DNA of 64,000 nt from a virus (taxonomy: Duplodnaviria; Caudoviricetes). A program made the translations under genes and the position numbers. Numbering within the stretch: position 1 is the first letter of the stretch; every line of letters starts with the position of its first letter. The DNA is taken from positions 18,164-82,163 of the IMG/VR virus record IMGVR_UViG_3300033463_000075; one strand, given 5' to 3'. Positions 35,857 through 44,909 of this stretch are shown piece after piece. A model generated the notes under the pieces. It made no database searches and was not told the DNA's origin. It was given only the letters and a program-made list of their open reading frames with translations.

Positions 35857-36531
35857 TTAATCTAATTTTGCATCTATAAATTTTCCGTCTTCTACCTTGC
35901 CTTTTTGCCATTTGCCATATTTATTTTTATATAGGCCAAATGTTTCAAAAGTGAAAAAAAGTAGGTCTGAACAGTCATCAAAAGTAGCTTTTACATTATT
36001 TAGCAGTTTTATTTGACTATCACTCGCAAACTTAACACCCAATAAACCAGAGCAGTATTCAAAAGCTGTCGGGTGTATAAAGTTCATATCTGGCCCAAAT
36101 GTTATTGATAGCAGGTCTTTGCAGCCCTTAAAAGTAAAATCACGTAGCCTTGTGCAGCCATCAGGTATTATTATCTTTAATAGTCCTGTATGAGCAAAAG
36201 CATACATACCAATATCAACTGCCTTTCCATCTGTGTCTTCACTAAAGAAAAATCTTCTTAAGCTTTTGCAGCCACTAAAAGCCATAACAGCTATTTTGTG
36301 TAGCGTCTTAGTGTTAGATAAGTTGACATCAGTTAATCTTGTGCAGTCTTTAAAGGCTCTGGCACCTATCCATTCAAGCTTAGATCCTGCCTCTAATGAT
36401 ATTTCCTCTATATTAGTGTTGTTATTAAATGCTTCTAATTCTATAGCTTCAACCTCAGCTGGTATAACAACCTTAGTCTCAATACCATTATAAGCATATA
36501 ATATGTTGTCTCTTATATCAAAATCACGCAT
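35857..36531 (-). CDS. BspA-type leucine-rich repeat protein J (224 aa)
   Basis: IGxxAFxxCxxLxxI repeats; shared C-cap. Confidence 0.9.
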   Translation of the reverse strand: MRDFDIRDNILYAYNGIETKVVIPAEVEAIELEAFNNNTNIEEISLEAGSKLEWIGARAFKDCTRLTDVNLSNTKTLHKIAVMAFSGCKSLRRFFFSEDTDGKAVDIGMYAFAHTGLLKIIIPDGCTRLRDFTFKGCKDLLSITFGPDMNFIHPTAFEYCSGLLGVKFASDSQIKLLNNVKATFDDCSDLLFFTFETFGLYKNKYGKWQKGKVEDGKFIDAKLD

Positions 36532-36544
36532 TAGTTATATTCCT

Positions 36545-37225
36545 TTACCAATCTGGTGTATAGTTATCTGGTAGCTTATCAAGTATCCATGTATCATGAG
36601 CATATTCTTTAACAAGCTGTATATTTCCAAATCTTAAGTATCTTATGTTTGGACATCCTTTTAGTCAGTCTAAGTTTTTATCAAGTAGTTTTATATTCTC
36701 TCTGCTCTTAAAAGCTATTAGTTGAAGCTCTTTACAGTCAATAAAAGCTGTATCATCAATGTAGTCTATTTCAGGACCTAGATATACATTTTTAAGCTTT
36801 CTACAATAAGCAAATGTAGTAGTCTTAATTGTATGGCAATTATCTGGTAAAACTATTTCTTCTAATTTAGAGCAATTTATAAAAGCACCAAGTCCAAGGT
36901 CTAGCTCTTCTTTAGGTGGGTTTGTAGAAAAATAAATACGTTTTAAGTCACAGCAATTATTGAAAGCATACATGCTAATATGTGTTAGAGGTGCATGCTC
37001 AAGATATATTTTTTCAACATTTAAGCAGTTAGCAAAAGCATCTGTACATATTTTTCAAAGCTTAGAGTTTGGCTCAATATCTACACTATGTATTTGTATG
37101 CAGTCTTTAAATGCATTTTGTGCAATTACTTCGGTTTTTGCTGGAATATAAACACCATGATTTTTGCTTTTATAGTGTAGTATCATTGTGCCATTATTTA
37201 ATGTGTCAAAATCTGTATTAGACAT
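36545..37225 (-). CDS. BspA-type LRR protein I (226 aa, 2 TGA)
   Basis: TGA 37055 and 36665; TAA 36545. Confidence 0.85.
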
Positions 37226-37228
37226 TTA

Positions 37229-37891
37229 TTACCTCACACTAAAATTACCTTTTTCATCTCGCTTAGCATAAAACCATTTGTTTTCAGCCGGGTTTCTAAT
37301 AAGCCCAAATGTAGCAAATGTAATAAAGTCTGGTTTAGCTGAGCCCAATATTCTAGCAGGGTTTTCAAATAATCTTACTGCATCATCACTCGCAAACATG
37401 ATATACTTTAAGTTATCACAGCCATTAAAAACATCGTCATCAAATTCAATGTTGTCAGTGGCATCAAATATAGCTGTCACTAAGTCTTTGCAGTCTTTAA
37501 ATAATTCATGCGGAATCTTAGTAACTTTTTCTGGTATTCTAATATTTATTAACCCAGTCTCCCAAAATACATTTGGTTTTAATGTAGCTAATGTTGGTGG
37601 TAGTGTCATAGTTTCTAATTTTTCGCAACCTGCAAAAGCACAACCATCTATATAAGAAAGCTTAGTTTCATGTAAATGCACAAATCTTTCCAAGTTCTTA
37701 CAGTCTGAAAAAGCTCTTATATCAATTTCTTCTAAGCCCTCTGGCAAGATTACTTGTTTTATATAATTATTTTGCTCAAAAGCTGACTGACCAATTCTTA
37801 CAACATTGGCAGGTATTACTACAGTAGGGTCTTTGCCATTATACTTAAATAGTGTTCCATCTAATGTTATTCTAAATTTTTGTTCTGCCAT
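37229..37891 (-). CDS. BspA-type LRR protein H (220 aa)
   Basis: VVIPANVVRIGQSAF, LPEGLEEIDIRAF repeats. Confidence 0.9.
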   Translation of the reverse strand: MAEQKFRITLDGTLFKYNGKDPTVVIPANVVRIGQSAFEQNNYIKQVILPEGLEEIDIRAFSDCKNLERFVHLHETKLSYIDGCAFAGCEKLETMTLPPTLATLKPNVFWETGLINIRIPEKVTKIPHELFKDCKDLVTAIFDATDNIEFDDDVFNGCDNLKYIMFASDDAVRLFENPARILGSAKPDFITFATFGLIRNPAENKWFYAKRDEKGNFSVR

Positions 37892-37894
37892 TTA

Positions 37895-38968
37895 TTAAAA
37901 CCTCATAATCTTTCAAGGATCTTTGTCTGTTGTGTTATATAGTTTCTTATTAGACTGATCTGGTCTAAAGAAGCCAAATGTTTCAAAAGTAATTTCATTT
38001 AACATTCTGCAGCCCTTAAATAAGTCAGTAGCTTGCTCTATTATATCTACTTGAGCATCTTTTGTAAATACTAATTTAGTTAGATCAAAACAGTTTGCAA
38101 AAGCTGCATCTGCAATATAGTCTACCTTATCTGGTATCACTATACTTTTTAATCTTGTGCAGTATTCAAAAGCATGCTCTTTAATATCAGTTAATACACT
38201 GCCTGCTTCAATAAATACTCCTGTTAAGGCAAGGCAATTCTTAAATGCTCTTTCACCAATAGTGTCAACAGATTGTGGTATAATTATTGACTTTAATTCA
38301 AAACAGTCTCTAAATGCGCTATTGTCTATAAATGTTAATGTATCAGGTAGCTTTACATCTGTTAGATGACGACTTTCTAAAAATGCTGCAATACCTAAGC
38401 TTTCTATAGGGCTGTTTATAACTACTTTTTCAGCTCTGCAATGTTGGCATAGTCTTGGTGGAAAATCTGTTATATCAGCATTTATTGTTAAGCACTTTGT
38501 TTTTAAGTGGTCAAATGCTTGTCCCCCAATAGCAGCTACACTATCAGGTATAAGCACATCTTCTGTAAAGGCTGTTCATTTAAAAGCTTCATTACCAATT
38601 TTAATTAAGTCAGGTCCAGCATTAAACTTACCCAAGCTGGCACATTGATAGAAAGCACTATTGCCAACATCAACTAATTCTTTTGGTAGGCCTTCGATTT
38701 TTAAGCTCTTACAGCCATAGAATGCATCTTCAAGTATATGTATAACGCTATCTCAATTTTTAATTGTTGTTAAGTTCTCACAACCCTTAAAAGCATTTTC
38801 TCCAACTGTTGTTACATGATTGCCAAAGTCTACGCTTTTAATTGTAGTATTAGGATAAAAAGCACCATTGGCTATTATCTTAACTTCATCAGGTAAAATA
38901 ATATCCGTGTCTGTGCCTTTATAATCTATTAAGGCTCCATTTAATATTTCAAAATCTGTATTAGTCAT
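37895..38968 (-). CDS. BspA-type LRR protein G (357 aa, 3 TGA)
   Basis: TGA 38753, 38576, 37913 in frame; TAA 37895. Confidence 0.85.
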
Positions 38969-42940: not shown

Positions 42941-42949
42941 TAATTTAGC
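42941..42949 (-). promoter_or_regulatory. GCTAAATTA putative late promoter
   Basis: Exact motif upstream of LRR C. Confidence 0.7.
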
Positions 42950-42975
42950 TTAAAATACTGCTCACACCATAAAAA

Positions 42976-43000
42976 ATATGAGCCTAAAATTAGCTCATAT
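42976..43000 (-). terminator. intrinsic terminator after LRR B
   Basis: ATATGAGC/GCTCATAT stem then T-run. Confidence 0.7.
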
Positions 43001-43024
43001 TATTATCAAAATTTTAAGTATGTA

Positions 43025-43975
43025 TTAGTCTTTTTTATTAAATACTCATTTACCAAAAGACTTTTCAAAAGAGCCTGATGGGAATTCAAATTTATTAAGT
43101 GAGTCACAGTTAACAAATATCTTATTAGCATCATTTAGCCTATCTTTTAACTTATCTGAGCTAAATTTGACAGTTGTTAAACTACTGCAGCTATTAAAAG
43201 CATTGTCCTCAATTCTCATATTTCAAGCATCTGTCAAGAAAGTAATATTGTGAAGGTCAATACAATTTTCAAAAGCACCTTCTTCAATAATATACGTTTC
43301 TTTTGGTAATGTAAGGCTAGTTAAACTTACACAACTTTTAAATGCTTTCTTACAAACTACTGAAAGATTTCTTGGCATAGATATATATGATAGCGCACTA
43401 CAGCAATTAAAACAGTTGTCTCCTATAAATATTAGTGAATCTGGCAAGTATACATTTTCTAAGCTTGTGCACATAAAGAAAGTCCAACTTGGTAAGTCAC
43501 CATCATCGGGCTTGCCCATTCAAACAACACTTTTTAAGCTTAAGCAGTGGCTAAATATACTATGCTCTATATCAGTAACCTTTTGATGCACAACAATGCT
43601 TTGTAATGACTTGCAACCTTTAAAAGCTTTTGCTCCTATTGTTGTTAATTTATTTGGTAAATGATTTTCAAGTATGTTTTTGCTAGGCATTGCATGGTGT
43701 ATATAGTTTAATGATTCGCAGTCTTCAAAAGCGCTTTCTCCAATAACTGTTCAGTTACCATCTTTAACATATCTAACTACCTTCAAATTTTTGCAGCCAG
43801 TAAAAGCACCTCTACCAACACTATGCACTGAAGCAGGAATAAATACAGCTTCTATAGTATAGTTATCTTTGAAGGCCATATCAACAACATCTATTACACC
43901 ATCTGGTATGACAACATCTTTTTCGTTGCCAGTATATTTAAGTAATGCATTATTTGATATAACAAAATCACTCAT
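43025..43975 (-). CDS. BspA-type LRR protein B (316 aa, 4 TGA)
   Basis: TGA 43751, 43520, 43223, 43046; TAA 43025. Confidence 0.85.
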
Positions 43976-43985
43976 CTATAACTCC

Positions 43986-44909
43986 TTACTTTTTATATGC
44001 TTCTCATTGATTAGTGCCTGGCACTCTATGAAAAGCATGCCTTGGAAAATCTATTTTAGCTAATTTTTCACAGCCATTAAATATTTCAACAGTATTAGCA
44101 AGCATTGACATTTGTGCATCTGAGCCAAAGCTTACACTAACTAAGTTTTTACAGTTAGCAAAAGCATTTTTTTCAATAACTTGTACTGAAGCAGGTATAT
44201 GTATATCTATCAAGTTTGTTTTAGCAAAAGCCTCTGTGCCTATCGCCTCAAGAACAGAATCAGCTTCAAAATTAAGCCTTGTTAGGTCTTTACACTCAAA
44301 GAAACTACAAATGCCTATAACTCCAGTTGCTTTTGGTATTGTAAGCTCTACAAGACCACTATTCTTAAATGCTTCGCTGTCAATTACTCTAAGTGCATTT
44401 GGTAGCTTGATAGTTTTTAACGCCCCACAGTACTGAAAAGCATTACGCCCTATCTCATCCATTTTATCTGGTAAATCTACAGCTTTTAATTGCTCACAAA
44501 AGCTAAAAGTATATGTAGGCAATACTGTTAGTTGTGTTTCGCTAAGGTCAGCATGTTTAAGTTCTGAGCAGTAATGAAAAACTTGATCACCTAAGCTATT
44601 TATTGTGCTAGGCATAATCATATATTGTAATTTACTACATTGTTGGAAAGCGCCTGTACCTATCGTAGTCACACCAGTTCTTAATATAGCTCTTTGTAAG
44701 TTTGAAGCAAAAGCAAATGCAAAGCGACCTATATCAGTGCCATTATAATAAGTATCAAAATATTTGATGTCAAGATTATTTTTCAAAGCATCATCAGCTA
44801 CTCCTGTGCAGCCGCGAGGTAGTGAAAGTCTACCAGTTGGGCTCTTATAATAAGTTAGCTTACCACTACTATTTAATCTTATAACTTCAGCTGGTTGTGT
44901 GTTAGGCAT
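43986..44909 (-). CDS. BspA-type LRR protein A (307 aa, 1 TGA)
   Basis: Track ORF extended through TGA 44004 to TAA 43986. Confidence 0.9.

Follow-up and report, generated by a model that had tools for sequence, protein, structure and literature searches.

The virus contig IMGVR_UViG_3300033463_000075 measures 82,163 bp, and its bases 18164-82163 make up the 64,000-nucleotide stretch analysed here (the window, whose numbering is used below unless the contig is named). It is a genome fragment from a giant phage, uncultured and of gut or rumen origin, in which TGA is read as tryptophan; the minus strand holds all the long reading frames, and these are continuous only when TGA is translated in this way. 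In the interval from the major capsid gene to a head-tail adaptor-like gene lies an array of ten contiguous minus-strand open reading frames (35857-44909), specifying leucine-rich repeat (LRR) proteins of 220-411 amino acids which are named W1 to W10 in the order of transcription. This array is real and unusual. When genes were called with translation table 11 the region was fragmented, while in table 4 the ten consecutive LRR genes of a preliminary description of this DNA were recovered at identical coordinates. Its placement of the array between the capsid and neck modules also held, the island being bounded by the capsid and head-tail adaptor-like genes.

The genes, with their sizes, in-frame TGA codons and E-values to the Pfam family LRR_5, are W1 (43986..44909; 307 amino acids, one TGA; 9.6e-96), W2 (43025..43975; 316 amino acids, four TGA; 1e-50), W3 (42064..42909; 281 amino acids, one TGA; 4e-45), W4 (41144..42064; 306 amino acids, two TGA; 2.9e-53), W5 (40203..41144; 313 amino acids, one TGA; 2e-70), W6 (38968..40203; 411 amino acids, four TGA; 1.8e-22), W7 (37895..38968; 357 amino acids, three TGA; 2.9e-61), W8 (37229..37891; 220 amino acids, no TGA; 3.6e-42), W9 (36545..37225; 226 amino acids, two TGA; 2e-27) and W10 (35857..36531; 224 amino acids, no TGA; 3.3e-26). 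Within the blocks W1-W2 and W3-W10 the genes are tightly packed: the TAATG coupling described earlier was counted at four junctions, and the other gaps are 3-13 nt. Each of the ten ends in a TAA stop codon and possesses a Shine-Dalgarno-like sequence.

The assignment of the proteins to LRR_5 (PF13306) was upheld, since all ten exceed the family's gathering score of 27.7 bits, with scores of 80-317 bits (E 1e-22 to 1e-95). W4 was chosen for structure prediction, and an AlphaFold (AF2) model built upon the 12-member family alignment (the ten W proteins plus two of the closest relative) is a curved LRR solenoid with a predicted local distance difference test score (pLDDT) of 92.3. W4 thus folds like solved LRR_5 proteins, the best Foldseek matches being 4fs7 (E 1.3e-11), 4gt6, 4cp6 (PcpA), 4h09 and TpLRR, which are mostly LRR_5 proteins of gut bacteria. 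By crude hydropathy and motif checks (rather than SignalP) none of W1-W10 has a hydrophobic N-terminus or a C-terminal sortase/LPxTG motif, and the maximum 19-residue hydropathy is 1.44. This agrees with the earlier statement that signal peptides, transmembrane helices and sortase motifs are absent, and on these tests the proteins lack the export and anchoring signals which define the BspA-like surface adhesins.

Each protein consists of a variable solenoid of approximately 6-12 repeats set between a common N-terminal hairpin and a C-terminal cap, and identity from paralog to paralog is 23-37%. The cap is a helix plus β-hairpin (F.SD.Q..L.....IF.GC..L..I.FP.F.L.K.....KW) with which all members end. 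A local cap-only hidden Markov model (HMM) of 49 positions scored the 12 family members at 55-75 bits and P0108, a positional ortholog of W1, at 51 bits, versus 13 bits or less for about 290 LRR_5 proteins of bacteria and for the large LRR proteins of related phages; an alignment which still held one full repeat drew giant LRR_5 proteins. By this measure the cap is family-specific within the protein sets scored.

W6 carries a second domain. Its LRR_5 repeats and cap occupy residues 1-229 and are followed by a linker and by residues 234-411 (178 amino acids; DNA 38968-39504), which were compared with the ADP-ribosyltransferase (ART) family ART-PolyVal (PF18760; gathering score 31.2 bits). The match of 19.8 bits (E 0.0015) is below the cut-off. 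An exhaustive search returned 53 homologs of the domain, most of them parts of large multidomain proteins that also contain SprT-like, Fic or DUF5662 domains, and since nine of 20 sampled homologs pass the ART-PolyVal threshold (best E 2.4e-15) its homology to this family is supported transitively. Down to a Z-score of about 5, the structural matches of the AF2 model (pLDDT 91.7) are nearly all ARTs or ART-like folds. These include the diphtheria-toxin catalytic domain (Z 8.5), a pre-ejectosome protein of cyanophage A4 (9k3a_B; Z 8.1, Foldseek E 8e-4), the anti-CRISPR entry 6kyf, MbcT, ParT, PARP1 and other PARPs, and exotoxin A. As modelled, the C-terminal domain of W6 is an ART fold of the ART-PolyVal type. 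Against the conserved [FY]-[HR]-G-[ST] NAD-binding motif and Glu of the family, it has the Glu (AVEYN) and an R-S motif, but Asn at the near-invariant His/Arg position; of 51 aligned family sequences, 41 have His there and 8 have Arg. Among 54 members of the ART-domain family W6 is the only fusion to an LRR.

The genes flanking the array encode a Gp23-type major capsid protein, a prohead protease of the S77/S80 type, a T4-type portal, terminase, the head-tail adaptor-like protein and components of the baseplate. With the capsids of large Bacillus and Listeria myoviruses the capsid protein shares about 30% identity, and with those of 64 IMG/VR loci 42-90%. Complete members of this group have genomes of 220-233 kb, one with terminal repeats, so that the 82-kb contig represents roughly a third of a jumbo phage, best taken as a myovirus. 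Across the clade the gene order is portal, a 169-amino acid gene, protease, capsid, adaptor and a 739-amino acid gene, and in 13 related loci the adaptor gene follows the capsid gene after only about 130-260 nt, leaving the junction empty. Here 15.5 kb (31095-46626) separate the two and hold an endonuclease gene, the 9-kb LRR array, a 954-amino acid protein and two glycosyltransferases. In other relatives the cargo consists of a homing endonuclease only, glycosyltransferases only, a DNA methylase with an HTH/NUMOD3 protein, or fibre genes (loci L001-L064); the last of these, in L021, are a 1507-amino acid protein and a 720-amino acid fibre with YadA_head and Peptidase_S74 endosialidase-chaperone domains. 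The capsid-adaptor junction is a recombination or cargo hotspot across the clade.

The borders of this hotspot are, on the left, the capsid gene (46627..47946, minus strand; Pfam Gp23 E 3.9e-28, PHROG major head protein) and, on the right, the head-tail adaptor-like gene (30372..31094, minus strand; PHROG head-tail adaptor Ad2 E 1.6e-7). The first cargo gene of the island encodes an HNH/homing endonuclease of 483 amino acids (45061..46512, minus strand; PHROG homing/HNH endonuclease E 2.7e-54), which is kept at the same position in some relatives only (L031, L037, L055). W10 is followed by three glycan-enzyme genes (31230..35844, minus strand), which Pfam and PHROG identify as a 954-amino acid FrhB-like/polysaccharide pyruvyl-transferase, a 292-amino acid glycosyltransferase-like protein and a 282-amino acid GT8 protein; their products could have a role in the modification of virion or host-wall glycans.

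Comparison with the closest relative (G001) reveals how sharply the content of this slot changes. The portal, protease, capsid and glycosyltransferase proteins of the two phages are 88-98% identical, and the flanking DNA is 87% and 85% identical in two blocks. Identity in G001 is 90% over the 126-nt promoter region ahead of W1, and the homology ends exactly at the W1 start codon. Beyond it G001 has only two LRR genes with the shared cap, 23-35% identical to any of W1-W10, followed directly by GT2/Stealth, glycosyltransferase and GT8 genes, with GT2 plus Stealth in place of the 954-amino acid gene. P0108 is a full-length ortholog of W1 (46% identical) and the first gene of a tandem array on a 6.2-kb NCBI contig, whose gene sizes (310, 304 and 319 amino acids, a gap, then 275, 306 and 315 amino acids) mirror W1-W5 plus one extra. 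Five of these six genes have an LRR_5 match on record and the sixth is cut by the end of the contig, giving at least five and probably six copies. Comparison of copy number, which had been suggested from the outset, therefore gives 10 LRR genes here, two in G001, at least five (probably six) on the NCBI contig, and none at this position in 29 other related loci. An invariant single-copy equivalent in relatives was the finding that would have spoken against a repertoire, and copy number is far from invariant.

Further arrays were sought in several ways. Among 5.8 billion protein clusters no relative of W4 exceeded 37% identity, and related loci searched with W4 alone yielded no further array. 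With an alignment of W1 and P0108, viral contigs gave only distant LRR_5 proteins, metagenome contigs gave none, and one contig of a metagenome-assembled genome proved unrelated. On these comparisons the array is best read as a lineage-specific cassette which can be exchanged as a unit between close relatives. Since the cassette has been replaced sharply between near-identical genomes, as is typical of conflict genes, and its content differs fully between close relatives, it looks like a phage-host arms-race module.

The preliminary description had read the genes as a diversified binder repertoire, likened in concept to those of the variable lymphocyte receptor (VLR) or NLR type, and had named the concave face of the solenoid as the place to compare between related genomes. 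Neither a focus of variation there nor a VLR-like diversifying system was supported. The scaffold positions are conserved and all remaining positions are saturated, mean pairwise identity being 0.10 at concave-face positions versus 0.11 at the others. In the W1/P0108 pair, 4 of 24 concave and 22 of 93 other positions are identical (Fisher p 0.59), so variation is not focused there. No recent duplication was detected in the array DNA, in which only the repeat signature recurs. Nor did the array contain long near-identical DNA repeats of the template-variable kind expected of diversity-generating retroelements (DGRs) or VLR-like systems, a reverse transcriptase not having been looked for elsewhere in the genome. 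Since the concave face is not extra variable and recent duplications are lacking, the array is best read as a set of old, fully diverged paralogs and not as an actively diversifying or DGR/VLR-like system. Gene conversion was likewise not detected, apart from two short stretches of high identity, one between the W4 and W1 caps (41199-41249 and 44041-44091; 88% over 51 nt) and the other between the starts of W9 and W7 (37196-37226 and 38939-38969; 90% over 31 nt). They may reflect local gene conversion or strong constraint.

The 9-mer GCTAAATTA occurs 17 times on the coding strand of the sequence and once on the other, as against approximately 0.9 copies per strand in shuffled sequences. Fourteen of the 17 coding-strand copies are intergenic, most of them 33-73 nt upstream of a start codon. 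They front the protease/capsid operon, the operon running into terminase and portal, the adaptor-like gene (at 31156), a baseplate-wedge gene, W1 and W3, while in the early region (contig 1-18 kb and the window up to about 3 kb) the genes have TTGACA/TTTACA-N17-TATAAT promoters instead. Both copies of a late-type motif that had been reported at the array are real, and the same motif fronts the structural operons: on the minus strand, one (AAGCTAAATTATA; 44934..44946) has its 9-mer 35 nt before the W1 start and the other (AAGCTAAATTATA; 42939..42951) 40 nt before the W3 start. Apparently the array is driven by these two copies of GCTAAATTA, putative promoters which it shares with the virion operons. 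The contig displays two promoter classes, the extended form of the structural/late one being GCTAAATTA(A/T)(T/A); example sites of the two classes on the minus strand of the window are at 61404, 56798, 50259, 49870, 31156, 24554, 22260, 14627, 5432 and 568.

A terminator-like hairpin precedes each motif copy in the array, at 45009..45040 (3' of the endonuclease gene) and at 42975..43001 (3' of W2), both on the minus strand, and another is found 3' of the capsid gene. After the W2 hairpin the next minus-strand site is at 31182-31207, 3' of the last glycosyltransferase gene. No coding-strand terminator-like site was found between W3-W10 and the three glycan genes, the gap from W10 to the 954-amino acid gene being 12 nt. 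These positions argue for two transcription units, W1-W2 and W3-W10 plus the three glycan genes.

In-frame TGA codons occur in eight of the ten array genes, which are open only when TGA is read as Trp, and total 18 versus 16 TGG codons. The conserved Trp codon of the aligned cap is TGA in four paralogs and TGG in five (W7 has Lys), which constitutes good internal evidence for the recoding. Taken together, the arrangement of the promoter-like motif and the in-frame TGAs make late expression of the array likely. The recoding of TGA in late genes of large gut and rumen phages is already known (Borges et al.). TGA use is partitioned in this phage: the protease, capsid and homing endonuclease genes (45061-49820) possess no TGA and 16 TGG, those for the LRR and glycan proteins of the same island (31230-44909) 45 TGA and 23 TGG, and the early-region genes mostly zero TGA. 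The three glycan-enzyme genes (27 TGA versus 7 TGG) show the densest use seen. About 2.4-4.2 kb before the start of the window (contig 14007-15731), a 574-amino acid frame with 11 TGA and one TGG sits after a 558-nt intergenic region in an otherwise TGA-poor part of the contig.

The claim that no described phage has such an array stands insofar as no paper describing an LRR array in a phage was found; LRR_5 proteins themselves do occur, unannotated, in phage genomes, in three PHROG families (all of unknown function), in records of uncultured gut phages and as large proteins of the same clade. Several candidates were rejected as carriers of an array or as relatives. MT835474, MT835484 and MT836325 have single large LRR proteins, the 677-amino acid LRR proteins on contigs of about 210-230 kb lie in a bacterial context (SecA, release factors) rather than in jumbo phages, and a SPLASH preprint mentioning LRR_5 concerns a miniature inverted-repeat transposable element. 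Within the clade, G012 (L079/L080; G012:140000-167800) has a same-strand cluster of seven larger LRR genes (307 to more than 1806 amino acids) elsewhere in its genome. G006 (L083) encodes a 1674-amino acid CotH-kinase, Flg_new and LRR_5 protein, G007 (L082) a 2253-amino acid coiled-coil protein with C-terminal LRR_5, G010 (L084) a 1019-amino acid protein with LRR_5, YadA_head and β-helix parts, and G002 (L086) two LRR proteins of 843 and 960 amino acids. The complete genomes G009 and G011 have no LRR_5 genes, and the surroundings of the relatives' other LRR clusters have no genes in common with the 82-kb fragment.

In bacteria, 13 of the 120 best W4 relatives combine an N-terminal TIR domain with C-terminal LRR_5 repeats, at 26-37% identity. 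Their TIR parts alone match models for Thoeris ThsB, SAVED-TIR and Argonaute-associated TIR domains, making these proteins candidate LRR-sensor defence proteins. Such proteins include P0296 (Clostridia according to NCBI), P0339, P0340, P0343, P0354, P0371 and P0403, which derive from gut metagenomes, are about 430-530 amino acids long and look cytoplasmic. PADLOC gave no match for the phage LRR proteins.

Late-type regulation, the lack of export signals, the common cap and the ART fusion argue for action inside cells or travel with the particle and against secreted adhesins of the BspA type. With the conflict-gene-like replacement of the cassette added to these four features, we lean, at somewhat less than even confidence, towards LRR binders that are made late, travel out with the virion and target proteins of the host. 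From the structure and surroundings of the genes we infer late timing, virion association, packaging and host-protein binding as follows. The array genes would be transcribed from the two late-type promoter copies together with the virion genes, and eight of the proteins would be made in full only after the switch to TGA as Trp. Having no export signals, they would be synthesized in the cytoplasm, and a cap shared by all family members suggests that they are handled in a common step. This cap, or some other element they share, would bring the proteins into the particle, most likely as cargo that is packaged in the head and delivered along with the DNA. Once in the next cell, the solenoids could each bind a different host protein, whether a defence or a takeover target, W6 adding an ART-fold domain of the effector type to its targeting module.

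In phiKZ-like jumbo phages, head-internal proteins typically come as families of tandem paralogs, and the internal-protein locus of the T-even phages is a hypervariable cassette, the product of which, IPI*, blocks a host restriction system. The W locus resembles the latter in being a hypervariable cassette within a conserved frame. ARTs encoded beside head and packaging genes, and within polyvalent proteins, have been inferred to be packaged and injected (Iyer et al., PMC9503650, PMC5512222). Like T4 Alt, the internal proteins IPI-III and the polyvalent proteins with ART-PolyVal (PF18760; Iyer et al. 2017), the W genes lie beside head genes and are apparently late, and one member, W6, has an ART-PolyVal-type fold. 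They differ from these effectors in having no recognizable capsid-targeting sequence and no recognizable MuF or portal fusion. Unlike that of the polyvalent proteins, the variable part is an LRR solenoid, which PMC9503650 and PMC5512222 do not mention, and W6 has only two modules and an ART motif without the His/Arg.

Several points weigh against packaged, virion-borne binders. No capsid-targeting or prohead-protease site was recognized at the N-termini of the W proteins, and their alignment reveals no shared N-terminal targeting peptide. The ART domain of W6 may be inactive because Asn replaces the His/Arg residue, and as the sole LRR fusion in its family W6 has limited weight for the other nine paralogs. 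Position in the hotspot is by itself weak evidence, since genes for endonuclease, DNA methylase and glycosyltransferases, whose products are not packaged, are also carried there, as are fibre genes in one relative. Finally, the relatives' LRR_5 domains lie inside fibre-like giant proteins, which favours display at the surface.

This last point leads to the idea, possible but in our estimate rather unlikely, that the W proteins are virion-surface adhesins, the cap docking on the capsid or neck in the manner of a decoration protein and the solenoids, as a mixed coat, binding host-surface, plant-fibre or mucus ligands. Decoration genes are usually placed after the capsid gene, as this array is. 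The L021 hotspot holds the 720-amino acid fibre gene with its YadA_head and endosialidase-chaperone domains, and the giant LRR_5 proteins of the relatives have coiled-coil, YadA_head or β-helix parts. The solved relatives 4gt6, 4fd0 and 4fdw carry cell-surface protein titles, and the array appears to be co-transcribed with glycan enzymes able to dress the particle. W6 does not fit, since its C-terminus is an NAD-dependent enzyme fold of a type known otherwise from effectors that are injected or intracellular; moreover, the conserved element is small and C-terminal, and the cytoplasmic TIR+LRR_5 proteins indicate that the repeat type is not limited to surfaces. The BspA-type and TpLRR proteins (4fs7, 4gt6, 4h09, PcpA 4cp6 and Treponema TpLRR 6mlx) share with the W proteins the repeat family, the solenoid, units of about 23 residues and the AF..C ladder. 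Unlike them, the W proteins are phage-encoded in code 4, have only 220-411 amino acids, lack a signal peptide, lipobox, sortase motif or anchoring module in the crude tests, and carry a C-terminal cap not found in about 290 bacterial relatives.

The presumed cytoplasmic character of the proteins would also suit shields or decoys which stay in the infected cell and bind late phage proteins or host sensors so that abortive infection remains off, perhaps by mimicry of the sensor part of TIR+LRR_5 proteins; we regard this as unlikely. Avs-type sensors recognize terminase, and other defence systems recognize portal or capsid. With these proteins the array is probably co-expressed late. Recognition of late phage proteins by bacterial sensors is also supported by PMC11564622. 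The absence of export signals, a cassette turnover typical of defence and counter-defence genes, and the presence of 13 TIR+LRR_5 proteins among the 120 best W4 relatives are all in keeping with shielding. However, the identity of 26-37% to the latter is no better than that to other LRR_5 proteins, the phage LRRs have no PADLOC match, and heavy TGA use speaks against recent capture from a host with the standard code. W6 shares with the TIR+LRR_5 proteins and with the IpaH/SspH-type effectors the logic of an LRR recognition module joined to an NAD-using or other effector domain, and is likewise of cytoplasmic type; its domains stand in the opposite order to those of the TIR+LRR_5 proteins, and an enzymatic domain is missing from nine of the ten paralogs. 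The IpaH LRR class differs from LRR_5.

Extending the packaged-binder reading, the ten genes might form a germline repertoire of interchangeable LRR binders, loaded by the cap in or on the particle, each neutralizing a separate sensor or effector of host immunity, the host's own TIR+LRR_5 proteins perhaps among them, with the cassette reshuffled between phages behind the conserved late promoter. We hold this fuller version to be distinctly unlikely.

It is improbable that the LRR proteins serve as partners of the glycan enzymes, recruiting the pyruvyl-transferase and glycosyltransferases to host or virion substrates. The three glycan genes appear to belong to the W3-W10 unit, no coding-strand terminator-like site intervening, and in G001 too the LRR genes are directly followed by GT2/Stealth, glycosyltransferase and GT8 genes; against this, glycosyltransferase genes occupy the hotspot without an LRR gene in six related loci, and W1-W2 seem to form a separate unit. 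To our knowledge such a role has no precedent. That the family is dispensable cargo, expanded while hitch-hiking in a recombination hotspot and with no specific role in infection, is very improbable: complete relatives, G009 and G011 among them, lack the family and the hotspot gathers selfish elements such as homing endonucleases, but the ten intact frames, the ribosome-binding sites and the conserved scaffold residues and cap, retained despite saturated surface divergence, argue for purifying selection on the fold, and a positional ortholog array (that of P0108) exists on another contig.

In the immunity of plants and animals, and likewise in many bacterial adhesins and effectors, recognition is the task of LRR proteins, while those of phages are essentially uncharacterized. 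The present locus supplies a bounded module with a defined slot, a promoter-like motif, a cap, cassette turnover and one effector-fold fusion. Standard-code annotation hides such modules in TGA-recoded phages. If the W proteins are packaged or displayed binders, they would represent a new protein class for the counter-defence or host-adhesion tool-kits of phages, and would be natural, compact, cysteine-ladder LRR scaffolds with many specificities. Should they prove to be a repertoire directed at host immune proteins, they would represent a new class of anti-defence module, a viral counterpart to the LRR-based repertoires of immune receptors.

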